Assembly (NCBI GenBank): GCA_044226285.1
Contig: JBGAHI010000006.1
Location: forward strand, 192,996-256,995
Source of the DNA: Chitinophagales bacterium
GTDB taxonomy: Bacteria; Bacteroidota; Bacteroidia; Chitinophagales; LD1
Reading direction: 5' to 3'
DNA length: 64,000 nt
The translations under genes and the position numbers were made by a program. The notes beneath the pieces are model-generated. The model saw nothing but the letters and a program-made list of their open reading frames with translations. It made no database searches and was not told the DNA's origin. This document shows positions 6,080 to 38,635 of this stretch, piece by piece (the first letter of the stretch is position 1; the number at the start of each line of letters is the position of its first letter).

Positions 6080-7336
6080 ATGAATATTTATGCATTTATC
6101 ACACCTATGGTGTTGTTGCTCCTTTTCCTTGAAATAGGATACTCTGTATATAAACAAAATGGGATTTATAGTTTTCAAGATACGATCACTAACCTTGGAA
6201 CAGGCATTGGCAATCAATGTGTAAATCTAGGAGTAGCCTTTTTTGTCTTCAAATTTTACGGGTTTATCTATCAATACATTCCTTGGAAAGTTCCCAATAC
6301 TTGGTATTTTCTTTTGCTGTTATTGGTTATCCAAGACTTTGTGTTCTATTGGTTTCACAGAACAGGGCACACCTTGCACATCTTCTGGGCCGCACATATG
6401 CCACACCATAGCAGTGAGGAACTGAATCTTTCGGTTGGATTACGAGCAAGTTTCACCCAGCGTATCTTTCAGTTTCTATTTTTTGATTGGGTTTTGGTAG
6501 TGTTTGGCTTTTCACCGGAGATGATTTACAGCATGGCTGCTATTCATTTATTCATAGCTTATTGGCATCATACACAGCTTATCAATAAACTGGGTTGGAT
6601 AGAAAAAATATTTGTAACGCCATCTCATCATCGTGTACATCATGGTGTAAATCCGGAATATATCGACAAAAATTTTTCCGAGTTTTTGATTATCTGGGAT
6701 AGAATTTTTGGCACTTTCGCTAAAGAAGAAAAACCGGTGTGCTATGGTCTCACCCACCCTCCTCGAACTTGGGATCCATTTTACATCAACATCCAATACT
6801 GGAAACAGTTAATCGATGATGCTATTGCGGCTCCTTATTTCGTTGATAAACTAAAGATTTGGTTTATGCCACTCACTTGGCGGCCGAGGGGTTTAGAACA
6901 AACCGACTTAACGCAACGAATCGGATATGATTTAGAGGAACAAACAAAATGGACAAGCAAACAATTCGCCTTCAGTAAACCCTACTTAATTTTCCAGTTA
7001 CTGCTTGGTTTAGTATTTATGTATTTTACCATCAATCAGCAAAATGCCCTTTCTGTATTTGATCGTATTATATTTTCGGCAGAAATAATGTTGATGATAT
7101 ACAGTTGGTATGGTGTATTAGAAGCCAAACCTTGGGCAATTTTCACAGAGATAGGACGATTATTGTTGATGGGAGCAACATTTGTAATAGTATTGTATCA
7201 ACACGATTTAATCACACTTATTGGTTGGGTAAGCATTCTCACGCTGCTTCTAGTTGGAGCTTCACTACTCTATATTTCCTTTTTCTTCAGATATGGAAAA
7301 ACAGAAGGTGAGGCATTTCCATTAGTGAATGCCTAA
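6080..7336 (+). CDS. Fatty acid hydroxylase/sterol desaturase superfamily membrane protein, AGMO(TMEM195)-like histidine motifs, extra C-terminal TM region
   Basis: HRTGHTLHIFWAAHMPHHSSEELNLSVGLR, WHHTQ and HHRVHH histidine boxes, with multiple TM helices on both sides. Confidence 0.7.
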   Translation: MNIYAFITPMVLLLLFLEIGYSVYKQNGIYSFQDTITNLGTGIGNQCVNLGVAFFVFKFYGFIYQYIPWKVPNTWYFLLLLLVIQDFVFYWFHRTGHTLHIFWAAHMPHHSSEELNLSVGLRASFTQRIFQFLFFDWVLVVFGFSPEMIYSMAAIHLFIAYWHHTQLINKLGWIEKIFVTPSHHRVHHGVNPEYIDKNFSEFLIIWDRIFGTFAKEEKPVCYGLTHPPRTWDPFYINIQYWKQLIDDAIAAPYFVDKLKIWFMPLTWRPRGLEQTDLTQRIGYDLEEQTKWTSKQFAFSKPYLIFQLLLGLVFMYFTINQQNALSVFDRIIFSAEIMLMIYSWYGVLEAKPWAIFTEIGRLLLMGATFVIVLYQHDLITLIGWVSILTLLLVGASLLYISFFFRYGKTEGEAFPLVNA

Positions 7337-7345
7337 TAACAACTT

Positions 7346-8389
7346 CTATAAATCGAGATATTCTGCGTCTTGTCCAACTGGATAACGCATCAAATACGTT
7401 ATCGCTTTCTCCATTTTCAACCCTTCGAAGAACACAGAGTACAACACTTGAAGCAGTGGAGCATTTGCCCCAATGTGATCAACAATGAGTTTACAAATCT
7501 TAAGTGTACGAACCCCTTCAGCGACTTCACTCATGGAGGCTAAGACTTCTTCCAAAGTCTCCCCTTTTGCAATTCTATAACCTACCGTGTAGTTTCTCGA
7601 TTTAGGAGAAGCACAAGTAGCAATTAAATCGCCAATACCGGCAATACCTAAAAAGGCGCGCTTATCTGCTCCTAATGCCTTACCAATGCGTATCATCTCT
7701 CCCATTCCTCGGGTGATTAATAATGCTCTAGTATTCTCGCCATAACCAACACCCGATAATGCCCCTGAAGCCAAAGCAATATAATTCTTCAATACACCGG
7801 CTAATTCAATACCCAATAAATCTTTGTTGCCAAACACTTGAAATCTATCGCTTTGCAACACCGATTTGCCCTCGCGAATTACCTCGTCAAATCTACTGGC
7901 AATAACAGTTCCTGCCGGTTGATGCTCGGCTAATTCTGCAGCTAAATTCGGACCGGCAATACAACCAATACGCACAATAGCCGTTTCTTGTTGAATAATC
8001 TCCGACATGGTTTTGATGTTCTTCAAATTCACATCTTTTGCATCAATGGTATCGATATCAAACTCGCAGTGTAAGCCTTTAGTAGCGTGAATCATCAAAT
8101 GATCGGGACGTAAATAAGGAGATAAATCAATAATCATTTGCTTAAACGAAGCCGAAGGCACTACCGGAAACAGCATACACGATTTTTCGGCCATTTCTTC
8201 AAACGAATCGGTTACCGTAATGTTGGGATGCATCACATGATTGCGATTTACACCATCTCGGGCCATACGTTCACGAACTTCAGGGTTTCGTTCATACAAA
8301 TACACCTTAGTGTTTTCAGCTAAAAGATTCGATACCGCTGTACCGAAGCTTCCGGCACCAATCACGCCTACAATTTTTTCTTTGCTCAT
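7346..8389 (-). CDS. gpsA: NAD(P)H-dependent glycerol-3-phosphate dehydrogenase
   Basis: VIGAGSFGTA dinucleotide fold near the N-terminus and GxGDLxxTC (GIGDLIATCASPKSRNY) motif. The ATG at 8389 is preferred; the ORF extends to 8407. Confidence 0.9.
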   Translation of the reverse strand: MSKEKIVGVIGAGSFGTAVSNLLAENTKVYLYERNPEVRERMARDGVNRNHVMHPNITVTDSFEEMAEKSCMLFPVVPSASFKQMIIDLSPYLRPDHLMIHATKGLHCEFDIDTIDAKDVNLKNIKTMSEIIQQETAIVRIGCIAGPNLAAELAEHQPAGTVIASRFDEVIREGKSVLQSDRFQVFGNKDLLGIELAGVLKNYIALASGALSGVGYGENTRALLITRGMGEMIRIGKALGADKRAFLGIAGIGDLIATCASPKSRNYTVGYRIAKGETLEEVLASMSEVAEGVRTLKICKLIVDHIGANAPLLQVLYSVFFEGLKMEKAITYLMRYPVGQDAEYLDL

Positions 8390-34755: not shown

Positions 34756-35208
34756 TTATCGGGGAATACATCCTCCTTTCCGTTTACTCTCAATGCAAAG
34801 CATATCAGAAGCATTACAATTAGATACATTCCCATTACAATCGAATTGAATTTGATCAAACATAATGATTGCTGCATCAACGCGAGATTCTGAATTATCA
34901 ATAATAAACTCTACATCTCTAAAAGCAGAATTGAATTTCACATAATAACCTGTCGTTCCATTAATGATATAAAACATCCTATTCTCTCCTTCACTCACCA
35001 CAGTGTAGGTATCAGAATGATTATCTTTATAATAAACCTGTGCAATTGAATCCGAAATACAAAAATCGTGTACCGTATTCAAATACATACGTATACTATC
35101 TGCTTCTTTTGAATGTTCCTTAATTTTAAATTGAACAATTTTTGATGTTCCGGCAATACTACAATACACAGAACAAAAGATACAAATAATAGAAAGATAA
35201 TACTTCAT
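34756..35208 (-). CDS. Secreted hypothetical protein
   Basis: Signal peptide MKYYLSIICIFCSVYCSIAG (ATG 35208). Cys-rich C-terminus. Confidence 0.45.
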   Translation of the reverse strand: MKYYLSIICIFCSVYCSIAGTSKIVQFKIKEHSKEADSIRMYLNTVHDFCISDSIAQVYYKDNHSDTYTVVSEGENRMFYIINGTTGYYVKFNSAFRDVEFIIDNSESRVDAAIIMFDQIQFDCNGNVSNCNASDMLCIESKRKGGCIPR

Positions 35209-35285
35209 CAGGGGTCGTTTATACAATAATCAGGACTAGACAATTCTCGATTGCAATATAGCCTATCTGCTATGAAAATGTCAAG

Positions 35286-35381
35286 CGTATTTATACGGAA
35301 TTTTTACGTATTTATACGGATAGCGTAAAAGGTATTTTTACCTAGTTTTACGTAGAAATACTGAACCAAGATTTATACAGA
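35286..35381. promoter_or_regulatory. Cluster of direct and inverted repeats (candidate operator) upstream of the four-gene signalling module
   Basis: Exact 14-mer CGTATTTATACGGA at 35286-35299 and 35307-35320 (21-bp phasing), with a partial copy ATTTATACA at 35371-35379. TTTTACGTA at 35302-35310 and 35346-35354. Inverted CGTAAAA at 35324-35330. GGTA-TTTT-TACC at 35331-35342. Confidence 0.5.
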
Positions 35382-35509
35382 TCATTACATTTTGCTAATT
35401 TTCAACTTATTACAAATACAAAACACGAATTACTAACCTTTTTGCATCTTTTTACTAGCATTTAACGTAACTTCAAAAAACATTTATTTAACCTCAAAAT
35501 TATTAAAAC

Positions 35510-35833
35510 ATGGATGTATTATCAGTAAATGACGGAGATTTCGTAACACTAAGTGAAGGGGCCGCTTACACAGCTGCATATAGAGATCAATTCCCTAGTA
35601 TGGATGGTGTTATTAAGGGTCTCTTTGTTGGAAGAAATAAGATTAACTCTTTACTCAATCAAGAAAATGTTGTAGGATTAAGAATTTACTTCGGGTTAAA
35701 TGAAGAAGGGGTGCCAAATCTTGTAATCGTAGGCGCTAAAGCTACCGGTGACGATGTTACAAGTTTAATTGTAGAAAAATTAAGACCTTGTCCACCTACA
35801 TGTGGCAATTCGAATAGTTTAAATGGAAATTAG
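35510..35833 (+). CDS. Unknown 107-aa cytoplasmic protein with Cys-containing C-terminal tail
   Basis: No signal peptide. Ends RPCPPTCGNSNSLNGN. Its last codons overlap the next gene's ATG (ATGGAAATTAG). Confidence 0.55.
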   Translation: MDVLSVNDGDFVTLSEGAAYTAAYRDQFPSMDGVIKGLFVGRNKINSLLNQENVVGLRIYFGLNEEGVPNLVIVGAKATGDDVTSLIVEKLRPCPPTCGNSNSLNGN

Positions 35834-36488
35834 CACTTCGTTTCTTTTTCTTCAAACTGCTACTTTTGCAAGTTTAATTTTATTAATAGTCTCTGTGATT
35901 AAATTCAATGTTATTCGCAGAGACTATTATTATTTCTTTGGATTTATTTTTTTAATCTTAATAGCAACAATTGGAGACTATGTTTTACGTCCAAAGTTTA
36001 TTCCGCAAAACAACAATATACTCTACAATATTTATACAATGCTTGAGCTTCCATTTTGTGTGTATATATTAAACGAGCTACACTACAAGAAACTTCAAAA
36101 AAAAGTGTTAATTGTTTTAGGAATATTTTTTTATTCGATAGTACTTTTTGAAGTATTTAAAACAGGGATAGTTGTATCATTTTACTTAACAAACTATATA
36201 GCTTCCTTTTTTGAGATTTTGATTTGTATGTATACTTTATATGACTTACTTGAAACACCAAGCGAATCTCTTATATATATGTCTGTTTCATTTTGGTTTT
36301 CATTAGGCTTCTTATTATACAATGCTGGAACAACCTTCCTTTTTCTTCTTCTTGACAAACTTTATATTTTAGATCAAACATTAGCCTCATTAGCCTTTAA
36401 CCTTTTAAATTCAATTTTCTCTATTCTTTTTTATATTTTTCTTGCCATAAGTATCTTATGCTTGAAACCAAAGACTCTCTCCTCTTAA
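35823..36488 (+). CDS. Orphan ~7-TM integral membrane protein
   Basis: 221 aa made up almost entirely of about seven hydrophobic helices. Overlaps both neighbours. Confidence 0.6.
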   Translation: MEISTSFLFLQTATFASLILLIVSVIKFNVIRRDYYYFFGFIFLILIATIGDYVLRPKFIPQNNNILYNIYTMLELPFCVYILNELHYKKLQKKVLIVLGIFFYSIVLFEVFKTGIVVSFYLTNYIASFFEILICMYTLYDLLETPSESLIYMSVSFWFSLGFLLYNAGTTFLFLLLDKLYILDQTLASLAFNLLNSIFSILFYIFLAISILCLKPKTLSS

Positions 36489-37246
36489 TCCTATTTTTCG
36501 GCACAAGTAGTCTCATCCTTTTCTTTGGGGGAATGTTGCTTTTTGTATTCAAATACCAACGTAAGGTTTTATTGCATCAGCAAGAGCTAGCTCGAAAAGA
36601 AGAAGAAAAGCAAAATGAGTTGCTTCGTGCCGTTATCGAATCGCAAGAAAACACACAGAACTTTATTGCTAAAGAATTGCACGATGGAATTCTCCAAGAA
36701 ATGGCAACATTAAGATTCAGCACGGCTCATATTTCTAGTCAACTAAAAAAACACGAATTACCCTTAGATACAATCGAACAACTAAAATTCGATATTGATA
36801 GTTCTATAAAGAATATACGTCAACTTTCACATAGTATTCTACCTTCAAAACTAGAAGAAGATGGACTTGCAGCTGCTCTTCAAAGTATTTCTGCTAAGAT
36901 TGACAGTTCTACAATTATCAAATCTACTACAACTGTGATTGGGGAGGTTTTTGAGCAAGATAAAGCTATAGAACTTGCATTTTTCAGAGTGGCTCAAGAA
37001 TCAGTTCAAAATGCAGTTAAGTATGCAGAAGCAAAAAACATTAACCTCATACTCGAATATTCAACTCATCGCTGTTGCCTCACCATTAGTGATGATGGTA
37101 AAGGATATAATGTTCTATCTATCGCATCAAACGGAATAGGATTAAAAAACATGCAATCAAGAGCAAAAGTTGTTGATGCCAAAATTGAATTTTCTTCAGA
37201 ATTGAATAAAGGCACAAAAGTAGTCATGGAAAAAATGTATATTTAA
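36458..37246 (+). CDS. Histidine kinase, HisKA_3/NarX-type, single TM, no recognisable sensor domain
   Basis: One TM helix (LLLILFFGTSSLILFFGGMLLFVF), a coiled coil, the H-box AKELHDGILQE, and HATPase_c motifs (QESVQNAVKYA, ISDDGKGY, GIGLKNM). Confidence 0.85.
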   Translation: MLETKDSLLLILFFGTSSLILFFGGMLLFVFKYQRKVLLHQQELARKEEEKQNELLRAVIESQENTQNFIAKELHDGILQEMATLRFSTAHISSQLKKHELPLDTIEQLKFDIDSSIKNIRQLSHSILPSKLEEDGLAAALQSISAKIDSSTIIKSTTTVIGEVFEQDKAIELAFFRVAQESVQNAVKYAEAKNINLILEYSTHRCCLTISDDGKGYNVLSIASNGIGLKNMQSRAKVVDAKIEFSSELNKGTKVVMEKMYI

Positions 37247-37267
37247 TGCGAAGATCAATATCAGCAT

Positions 37268-37921
37268 ATGCCCATAAATGTAATGGTGGTTGACGACCAC
37301 ACCCTATTCAGAAAAGGACTCATAGCTATTCTATCCGATATCCCAGAGCTTAATATTGTTGGTGAAGCCGAAAACGGAAAGGAATTTCTTTCAAAATATT
37401 CCGCAATAAATCCGGATATCATTTTAATGGATATGGATATGCCCGTTTTAAACGGTATTGATGCTTTAGTTAAATTGCGTGAGCGCAGAAACTCACCACC
37501 ATGTTTAATGATTTCTATGCACAACGAAGAAAAGTTTGTGCTCAAAGCCATAGAAGCCGGAGCAAATGGATACCTCACCAAAGATTCAGATCCTGAGATT
37601 ATTCACTTAGCAATACAATCTATTATATGTAATGGTTTTTACTTCGATGAGAAAGTAAATCTGTTGTTGGTGAAAAATATGGCCAAAAAGAAAAAAATTG
37701 TTCCAAAATTTGAATCAGGAAATCTGGTGCTTAATGCCAAAGAGATTGAGCTCATCAAACATATTGGAGAAGAATTGACCAGTGCAGAAATCGCAGAGAA
37801 AATGTTTTGCAGTGTTCGTACTATAGAAGGCATCCGCACCGAGCTCATCAAAAAGATTGGCGTTAAGAATGCTATTGGCTTAACTATTTATGGAATTAAA
37901 AGTGGAATTATTGCTGTTTAA
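37268..37921 (+). CDS. NarL/FixJ (LuxR-type HTH) response regulator
   Basis: REC domain (VMVVDDH...DIILMDMDMP...TKD) plus LuxR HTH (LTSAEIAEKMFCSVRTIEGIRTELIKKIGVKN). Confidence 0.9.
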   Translation: MPINVMVVDDHTLFRKGLIAILSDIPELNIVGEAENGKEFLSKYSAINPDIILMDMDMPVLNGIDALVKLRERRNSPPCLMISMHNEEKFVLKAIEAGANGYLTKDSDPEIIHLAIQSIICNGFYFDEKVNLLLVKNMAKKKKIVPKFESGNLVLNAKEIELIKHIGEELTSAEIAEKMFCSVRTIEGIRTELIKKIGVKNAIGLTIYGIKSGIIAV

Positions 37922-38139: not shown

Positions 38140-38595
38140 ATGGCACATATTTGCCCTATTAACGGAGAAAAAATTAACGAACCAACAGTTAGAACAGTTG
38201 CAGGAATTGTTGTTATTCTCTCGGCTTTGGGAATTTACTTCCACTTGTCATTTATTTTCTTATTTCTCGGATACGATTTTTTTGTTCGAGGATTTTATAA
38301 GAAAGAATATAGTCTGCTTCGGTTTATTGCGATACAAATAACTAACCTATTTAACTTTAATGAAAAGCTGATTGATGCAGCTCCAAAGCGTTTTGCGGCA
38401 AAAATCGGTTTCTTTTTTTCTATTTTAATTCTTGTATTGTTCCTTCTTCAACAATTCTATCTTGCATTAATCGTAACTACCATTCTGATTCTATGTGCTA
38501 TTTTAGAATCGGTTTTCGCTTATTGTTTGGGTTGTCAGTTCTATTCCATCTATATTACAACAAAAGACTACTTTCAAAATTCAATAAACCAATAA
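38140..38595 (+). CDS. DUF4395 family membrane protein
   Basis: MAHICPINGEKINEPTVR start, DFFVRGF, PKRFAAKIG and a C-terminal CLGCQFY motif, as I recall for DUF4395. The ATG at 38140 is preferred. Confidence 0.7.
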   Translation: MAHICPINGEKINEPTVRTVAGIVVILSALGIYFHLSFIFLFLGYDFFVRGFYKKEYSLLRFIAIQITNLFNFNEKLIDAAPKRFAAKIGFFFSILILVLFLLQQFYLALIVTTILILCAILESVFAYCLGCQFYSIYITTKDYFQNSINQ

Positions 38596-38596
38596 T

Positions 38597-38630
38597 AAAA
38601 AAGCGTTTCTGGATTCAGAAACGCTTTTTT
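38597..38630. terminator. Bidirectional terminator between DUF4395 gene and giant adhesin gene
   Basis: AAAAAAGCGTTTCTG-GATT-CAGAAACGCTTTTTT. Confidence 0.85.
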
Positions 38631-38635
38631 GTGTT

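Follow-up and report, generated by a model that had tools for sequence, protein, structure and literature searches.

A four-gene signalling cassette of Bacteroidota and related phyla in which an input-less HisKA_3 kinase and its NarL-type regulator are encoded together with members of two uncharacterised protein families

For two-component kinases that lack a sensor of their own, the point of entry of the signal is a long-standing question. Worked examples of a separate input protein (LiaF, VraT, BceAB and UhpC) are few, and come from Firmicutes and Proteobacteria. We have studied this question for a group of four genes lying on a 64,000-nucleotide (nt) stretch of the genome of a Chitinophagales bacterium (contig JBGAHI010000006.1); the whole of this stretch is referred to as the window. 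The genes encode a small protein (S), a membrane protein with seven transmembrane (TM) helices (T), a histidine kinase (H) and a response regulator (R). They were identified as open reading frames (ORFs), with lengths in amino acids (aa), as follows.

35510-35833, + strand: S, 107 aa
35823-36488, + strand: T, 221 aa
36458-37246, + strand: H, 262 aa
37268-37921, + strand: R, 217 aa

The coordinates bear out the tight packing noted in a preliminary description of this DNA. S and T overlap by 11 nt, the ATG of T lying within the final codons of S (junction ATGGAAATTAG). T and H overlap by 31 nt in different reading frames, and a spacing of 21 nt separates H from R. The conclusion that emerges from what follows is that this is a real, widespread and unannotated cassette, a two-component system with putative accessory input proteins that come from two uncharacterised families, S and T. 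Our reading of its function, to which we assign a probability of about 0.6, is that it forms a self-contained, autoregulated signalling cassette of four components, widespread in Bacteroidota and related phyla, in which T is a co-sensor and S an accessory protein.

H and R are a two-component pair, comprising a HisKA_3 kinase and a regulator of the NarL-LuxR type. H matches HisKA_3 (PF07730, E = 4e-5, 24.5 bits against a cut-off of 24) and HATPase_c (PF02518, E = 7e-10); Pfam finds no domain beyond these two, and there is a single hydrophobic helix. The protein begins with a short acidic N-terminus, followed by the one TM helix with a conserved G-T motif, the sequence KYQRK, a coiled-coil linker, the H-box ELHDG and the HATPase_c domain. 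Given the acidic N-terminus, the one helix and the basic segment that follows it, H should be oriented with its N-terminus outside the cell. Across the H family the G-T motif of the TM helix is followed by YQKK, the H-box aligns with LHDD in 67 homologues, and the column of Met-1 is at least 90% conserved, which supports the start codon. R contains REC (PF00072, E = 9e-28) and GerE (PF00196, E = 6e-7) domains. Comparison with NCBIfam gave matches of H to the UhpB (E = 1e-27) and LiaS (E = 6e-19) models and of R to the NarL model (E = 1e-35); H is thereby grouped with MctS, UhpB, LiaS and NarX, and R with MctR and NarL, in all cases below the equivalog cut-offs. The closest solved structures to H are those of VraS (E = 3e-9) and DesK. 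The domain content given for the kinase in the preliminary description, i.e., one TM helix, coiled coil, H-box and ATPase with no input domain, thus agrees with Pfam and with the sequence. Since H has no input domain of its own, delegation of signal input to T, to S or to both is the natural reading, as had been proposed.

If this were so, S and T should accompany the kinase and regulator elsewhere. We therefore scanned one genome per GTDB species using S alone as bait, recovering 80 loci in which ORFs were called and annotated with hidden Markov models. Most come from Bacteroidota (Chitinophagales, Crocinitomicaceae, Cryomorphaceae, Cytophagales, Sphingobacteriales and Saprospiraceae), with a few from KSB1, Ignavibacteriae and Calditrichaceae. 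T lies directly 3' of S in 74 of the 80; among the six exceptions, three are on contigs that stop shortly after S, and in two the place of T is taken by a divergent polytopic ORF. The order S-T-H was found in 76 of 93 sources and R in 70 of the 93, the failures being mostly contigs that are cut off. Of 70 distinct cassettes, 69 have T overlapping H, most commonly by 22 nt, and S and T often overlap or nearly abut. Close relatives (metagenome-assembled genomes, MAGs, of Chitinophagales) keep all four genes together with the flanking genes, the S proteins of two of them (L013 and L014) being 86-89% identical to that of the window. Distant homologues of S (41-48% identity) and T (around 20-30%) retain the order S-T-H-R in unrelated flanks, beside genes for PAS kinases or for SiaC and GAF proteins. 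In these distant cassettes S measures about 106 aa and T about 210 aa, the HisKA_3 kinase that overlaps T has about 270 aa, and the regulator is again of the REC-GerE type.

In all, S-T-H-R occurs in at least four unrelated genomic contexts. No neighbouring gene recurs beyond H and R, the next commonest being present in 11 and 10 of about 70 loci, so that the cassette is self-contained. It is not a chance arrangement: all four genes have many homologues, and their order is preserved. Thus the grouping of the four genes into one unit, made from the window alone, holds across genomes; the outcome that the preliminary description had named as speaking against it, S and T not being co-conserved with the kinase and regulator, is not what the homologues show. 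A cultured organism, Fulvivirga sp. M361 (L076), is among the carriers. We found no description of this cassette in the literature.

Several loci depart from a single copy of each gene. Paralogous S-T-H-R cassettes with differing operator variants (see below) are present in single MAGs (L039 and L046 in JALHPG01; L044, L052 and L056 in CAZMHW01), and the presence of two or three per genome suggests a diversification of specificity. Elsewhere two tandem S genes precede T-H-R (L059, 4630-5318), or S is followed by two T paralogues (L015, 5451-6771).

S is a soluble alpha/beta protein without a signal peptide; for the protein of the window this follows from an in-frame stop seven codons 5' of its ATG. 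An exhaustive profile search gave 2426 cluster representatives (clustered at 50% identity) at E ≤ 1e-3 and 1043 at E ≤ 1e-10, some of which are single domains of about 105 aa and others tandem proteins of 210-270 aa. Four residues are invariant (R58, Y60, D82 and P95), and a further ten are at least 92% conserved (T21, R25, G41, Q51, G56, C94, C98, N102, L104 and N105). The C-terminal motif C94-P-P-x-C98-G-x-x-N-x-L-N is around 92-100% conserved over the whole family, paralogues within one genome included. The AlphaFold2 model is confident, with a predicted local distance difference test score (pLDDT) of 90.8 and a predicted template modelling score (pTM) of 0.80, and the C-terminal tail also has high pLDDT. 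It comprises helices at 14-27 and 42-49 and strands at 37-39, 54-63, 69-77, 82-88 and 92-94.

Most members of the S family carry no export signal, but a Sec or lipoprotein signal is found on 22 of the 149 top representatives (around 15%), and those exported forms that we looked at in context also adjoin T. Many tandem forms resemble lipoproteins, with a hydrophobic leader ending in Cys (P0045, P0051, P0061, P0101, P0110, P0131, P0146, P0171 and P0173, together with L012 at 6730-7434 and L084 at 2033-2731). In several of these the Cys is followed by acidic residues (e.g., SCEDND or SCQENE), which we take to resemble the surface-lipoprotein export signal of Bacteroidota. If that resemblance holds, the S domain of these proteins would sit on the cell surface.

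T was modelled by AlphaFold2 from an alignment of 21 sequences as seven helices, with moderate confidence (pLDDT 75, pTM 0.76), in keeping with the initial view that the 221-aa ORF is almost entirely membrane-embedded. A first search gave 13 homologues, of which 12 are exactly 221 aa in length (67-98% identity) and the thirteenth is a fragment of 149 aa; a profile search added eight that are more distant, of 192-216 aa. In 74 T sequences the mean number of Lys and Arg residues is 9.9 in loops L1-2, L3-4 and L5-6 plus the C-terminus, compared with 3.2 on the opposite side, and from this T is deduced to have its N-terminus outside and its C-terminus inside the cell. The best-conserved motif, F157-W158 (91-93%), lies with L164 and Y166 at the cytoplasmic start of TM6. 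Some polar residues in the membrane or close to it show partial conservation (N64 76%, E75 70%).

Neither protein could be placed in a named family, in agreement with the preliminary description. Both are labelled 'hypothetical protein' in public sources. There was no consistent Pfam or NCBIfam match over 75 members of the S family or over 74 of the T family, and none for S or T alone; the highest count for any family was 2 of 75 members, at E ≥ 0.016, and no homologue of LiaF or VraT was seen. PADLOC and PHROGs matched neither protein. Sequence profiles of S and T found no relative in the PDB, with nothing below E = 0.3. Foldseek against the PDB gave no fold match for S (best E = 0.15, TM-score < 0.3), and for T gave only generic seven-TM bundles, the best of which (E = 0.11) is not significant.

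Could T and H be the two halves of one polypeptide? One-piece HisKA_3 kinases with polytopic N-termini exist, such as MctS and UhpB, and the overlap of T with H lies in different reading frames, as a multi-TM kinase broken by a frameshift or sequencing error might appear. We give virtually no credence to this artefact, which the preliminary description had itself raised. T is free-standing in all 21 database homologues and in more than 70 from the loci, with a length of about 190-250 aa; none is fused to a kinase in the manner of MctS or UhpB. The split is seen in more than 70 independent assemblies, down to 15-25% identity in T, with the overlap retained and the start codon of H conserved. 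Moreover, fusion of T to H is excluded topologically because the C-terminus of T is cytoplasmic and the N-terminus of H is outside, so that the kinase would end outside the cell. T and H are therefore two proteins, and the split sensor envisaged earlier, if taken to mean a one-piece kinase that has undergone fission, finds no counterpart among the homologues.

The region upstream of S, which had been described as about 300 nt of repeat-dense non-coding DNA, is 283 nt in length and contains four related 10-mers.

35227-35509, + strand: intergenic control region, 283 nt, between a divergent 156-aa ORF and S
35287-35361, no strand assigned: array of four 10-bp pseudo-palindromes GTA-N4-TAC, proposed operator of R
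35287-96 and 35308-17: sites 1 and 2, both GTATTTATAC
35332-41: site 3, GTATTTTTAC
35352-61: site 4, GTAGAAATAC

The spacings between successive sites in the window are 21, 24 and 20 nt. In five aligned orthologous loci (L001, L003, L004, L013 and L014) the final 70 nt or so ahead of the S ATG are nearly invariant, and sites 1-3 are conserved in position in all five. Site 4 is kept in L001 and L003 only, is degraded by one base in L004 and is lost in L013 and L014. At site 2 (35308-35317) the window and L004 have GTATTTATAC, a direct repeat of site 1, while L001, L003, L013 and L014 have the inverted form GTAGAAATAC (alignment A6). The constant part of the sites is thus the outer GTA and TAC triplets; the A/T-rich central four bases vary, and their orientation flips at site 2 between close relatives.

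The same kind of element is enriched upstream of S in general. Over 68 distinct cassettes, the 280 nt 5' of S contain 106 GTR-N4-YAC sites, compared with 10.0 ± 2.9 (maximum 18) in dinucleotide-preserving shuffles, and at least two sites are present in 33 cassettes, where shuffles give 0.8. With one exception the sites fall between -240 and -121 nt from the S ATG, and successive sites are mostly 20-26 nt apart. Subclades have their own variants, e.g., AGGTAATTTTACCT or GGTGAAAACACC. We compared the recognition helices of the regulators with these variants; as the variants track subclades the comparison is confounded by phylogeny, and it was not used as evidence. Rfam gave no match in the upstream region. 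GerE-type regulators bind short palindromes as dimers, and the cassette is all that the loci have in common; the simplest reading is therefore that the array is probably an autoregulatory operator of R. The preliminary description had suggested the neighbouring adhesin gene and glycan cluster as targets. The flanks differ between cassettes, and the 64-kb window contains no second operator-like array besides that 5' of S, so that the sequence lends no support to these genes as direct targets.

A small protein of 112-164 aa with an HNH-like motif (EIDHIKP...N) is encoded divergently upstream of one subclade of cassettes, that with operators of the GGTGAAAACACC type (L030, L034, L037, L041, L047, L048, L051, L065, L071, L072 and L077). 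The gene lies on the minus strand some 450-800 nt upstream of S, except in L034, where the copy is about 4 kb upstream.

In some loci S and T occur with other arrangements or partners, listed here with two further cassettes that have the usual kinase.

L060, KSB1: S with signal peptide; T followed by an overlapping 734-aa kinase with one TM helix, PAS, HisKA, HATPase and two REC domains
L083, Calditrichaceae: S with signal peptide; T followed by a similar PAS-HisKA-REC kinase, in a stretch partly masked and broken
L094 and L095, metagenome: S with signal peptide; T followed by an overlapping protein of 164-179 aa with one TM helix, a coiled coil and a PAS-like start
L084, Ohtaekwangia: lipoprotein tandem S; T followed by a 149-aa protein with one TM helix and a coiled coil
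L012, MAG: lipoprotein-type S, in the order T-S-H-R with a HisKA_3 kinase
L096, high-GC organism: standard S in a standard S-T-H-R cassette

Since the S-T pair precedes varied single-pass proteins, the constant feature is S-T plus a single-pass partner, usually overlapping T, rather than the class of kinase. This points to a contact between T and the single TM helix of its partner, and S-T looks like a portable input module. In the Ohtaekwangia MAG two S-T pairs (L084, 4933-6930, - strand) have no adjacent HisKA_3 kinase and stand beside CheB-like and CheR-like genes; this neighbourhood hints that S-T may also feed pathways of the chemotaxis type. We tentatively entertain a broader possibility, while thinking it rather more probably wrong than right: that S-T is a widespread and previously unrecognised sensory module, with T a free-standing seven-TM receptor that, together with S, signals in trans through the membrane to the single-pass protein encoded next. 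In such a scheme HisKA_3 kinases, hybrid kinases and PAS proteins could all serve as partners.

How might the cassette work? From their domain content, H, an input-less single-pass HisKA_3 kinase, would phosphorylate the NarL-type R. T, which is translationally coupled to H, would act as the co-sensor in the membrane, controlling H via its single TM helix or the juxtamembrane segment. S, with its CPPxC alpha/beta domain always beside T, may be an accessory that delivers a stimulus (a ligand, a metal or a redox signal) to T and H, or that feeds back; this is the least certain step, and we are far less confident of any particular role for S than of the overall architecture. Finally, phosphorylated R would bind the GTA-N4-TAC array 5' of S and control transcription of its own operon, as the comparative enrichment suggests.

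A number of points weigh against this scheme. The most awkward is that S is found on either side of the membrane beside a T of unchanging topology, which is hard to reconcile with a single fixed interface between the two; this is the main unexplained point. The predicted structures of S and T are single-chain models, which bears on the contacts proposed between T and H and between S and T. The link between operator and R comes from sequence enrichment only. T may not be a receptor but a transporter, since the folds that it matches are generic seven-TM bundles. Lastly, the genome scan used one S peptide pattern, from alignment A1, and so samples the S subfamily nearest to the window. In the broad alignment of S (A3) no stretch is conserved enough for the retrieval of loci, hence the use of A1, and most tandem S proteins lie outside the survey of context.

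Some of these observations would fit other roles for S and T. S might be the output of a three-component T-H-R sensor, a small Cys-containing protein with a protective or inhibitory function that feeds back as the first product of an autoregulated operon, like CpxP for CpxA or LiaI and LiaH for LiaFSR. Its position as the first gene behind the array would agree with this, as would the existence of tandem and duplicated S genes (e.g., L059), and the presence of an export signal on some S proteins and not on others is easier to understand in an effector than in a partner with a fixed docking site. We nevertheless think this rather unlikely, because the close linkage of S to T persists at loci with a partner other than a kinase and without an R in the vicinity (L084 and L093-L095), which argues for a partnership of S with T, as does the frequent overlap or near abutment of their genes. 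A different possibility is that T is a small transporter or channel whose transport state is sensed by H, with S as a substrate-binding protein, as in UhpC-UhpB, BceAB-BceS and DctA-DcuS. Transporter co-sensors of HisKA_3/NarL systems are established, H matches the UhpB and LiaS models, T has its partly conserved polar residues N64 and E75, and an S on either side of the membrane would be accommodated. Yet the 74 T sequences match no transporter family in Pfam or NCBIfam, T has merely seven helices with no internal repeat, and its fold matches, non-significant as they are, are to receptors and rhodopsins. We consider a transporter unlikely.

The preliminary description had also considered a peptide-linked cassette, and the order of small protein, polytopic membrane protein, kinase and regulator, with autoregulation that is likely positive, does recall agrBDCA. 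S would then be a precursor with a C-terminal tail, containing Cys, that T either processes and exports or senses, the tail acting as an autoinducer; the CPPxC loop lies at the C-terminus, and some S homologues are exported. However, S is a confidently folded domain of 105 aa that includes the tail, and the conservation of that tail, even between paralogues of the same genome, is the opposite of pheromone diversification. No AgrB, AgrD, HPK10 or LytTR match was found, the cassette has no peptidase or ABC exporter, and most S proteins lack an export signal. The peptide-linked form of the proposal has therefore been set aside as very improbable.

The co-sensor reading that we prefer can be set beside several known systems. 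LiaF is an accessory regulator of LiaRS (PMC3543457), and VraT is part of VraTSR (bioRxiv 10.1101/2025.01.23.634444). In these systems of Firmicutes an input-less HisKA_3 kinase of the intramembrane type and a NarL-type regulator similarly rely on a separate membrane protein encoded in the same autoregulated operon; VraS is the closest solved relative of H, and H matches the LiaS model. Against this, T, with its seven TM helices, lacks a soluble domain and gave no match to any sequence family, H has one TM helix rather than two, and the cassette belongs to another phylum and has an extra obligatory small protein. In UhpABC, too, a separate polytopic membrane protein, UhpC, signals to a HisKA_3 kinase, the UhpB to whose model H is matched. 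UhpC is a 12-TM protein of the major facilitator superfamily (MFS), and UhpB has a polytopic N-terminal domain of its own, whereas H crosses the membrane once and T, with seven TM helices, gave no MFS match.

The archaeal sensory rhodopsin/Htr complexes are alike in outline, in that the receptor, a seven-helix protein standing on its own, passes its signal sideways within the membrane to a second protein, the transducer, which controls a histidine kinase, and the weak fold matches of T include microbial rhodopsins and G-protein-coupled receptors. These matches are not significant (E ≥ 0.11 overall, and E ≥ 1.4 for rhodopsins), and in 74 T sequences no position of TM7 (residues 185-212) has a majority of Lys, so that the conserved mid-TM7 Lys that holds retinal in rhodopsins is lacking; the only conserved Lys of T is at its cytoplasmic C-terminal end. 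Here, moreover, the single-pass partner is itself the kinase. S has no counterpart in LiaFSR/VraTSR, UhpABC or sensory rhodopsin/Htr. In 7TMR-DISM proteins a bacterial seven-TM input module is combined with varied outputs, as S-T is with varied downstream partners, but those are single polypeptides with an extracellular DISMED domain; in the cassette the output is a separate single-pass protein, and the 7TMR-DISM Pfam model matches none of the 74 T sequences at E ≤ 1. The agrBDCA system shares the gene order and the likely autoregulation, and differs in all four families: H is a one-TM HisKA_3 kinase and not a fused polytopic sensor, R is of the GerE and not the LytTR type, and S is a folded domain with an invariant tail. 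In its mode of operation the cassette is most like the accessory-dependent HisKA_3 systems LiaFSR/VraTSR and UhpABC, but it belongs neither to these nor to the sensory rhodopsin/Htr systems.

Other features border the cassette in the window.

34756-35226, - strand: 156-aa ORF divergent from S, whose N-terminal segment is hydrophobic and signal-like and which has several Cys residues
38077-38595, + strand: DUF4395 membrane protein (Pfam, E = 1e-28), following R
38595-38632: strong hairpin resembling a bidirectional terminator, between the DUF4395 gene and the convergent gene of a 2593-aa SprB/CHU_C adhesin

The divergent ORF and S have the intergenic region in common, and the operator array may therefore be shared as well. 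It has no family match and is conserved in close relatives only, as a 150-aa gene (L001-L006). The DUF4395 gene is likewise kept after R in all of these close relatives, and is not present in the distant cassettes.

The cassette defines two unannotated families, S and T, that travel together and are plugged into varied single-pass signalling proteins across Bacteroidota, KSB1 and Calditrichota. As a self-contained operon with a clear predicted operator, it lends itself to direct testing in a cultured organism such as Fulvivirga sp. M361. Were S-T indeed a receptor module of the kind tentatively outlined above, two-component signalling in Bacteroidota and related phyla would include a receptor-transducer architecture, and S would be a new fold with a ligand-, metal- or redox-binding function. 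A T that acts as a receptor in trans would represent a new class of input in the signal transduction of bacteria and would allow hundreds of 'hypothetical' gene pairs to be annotated.

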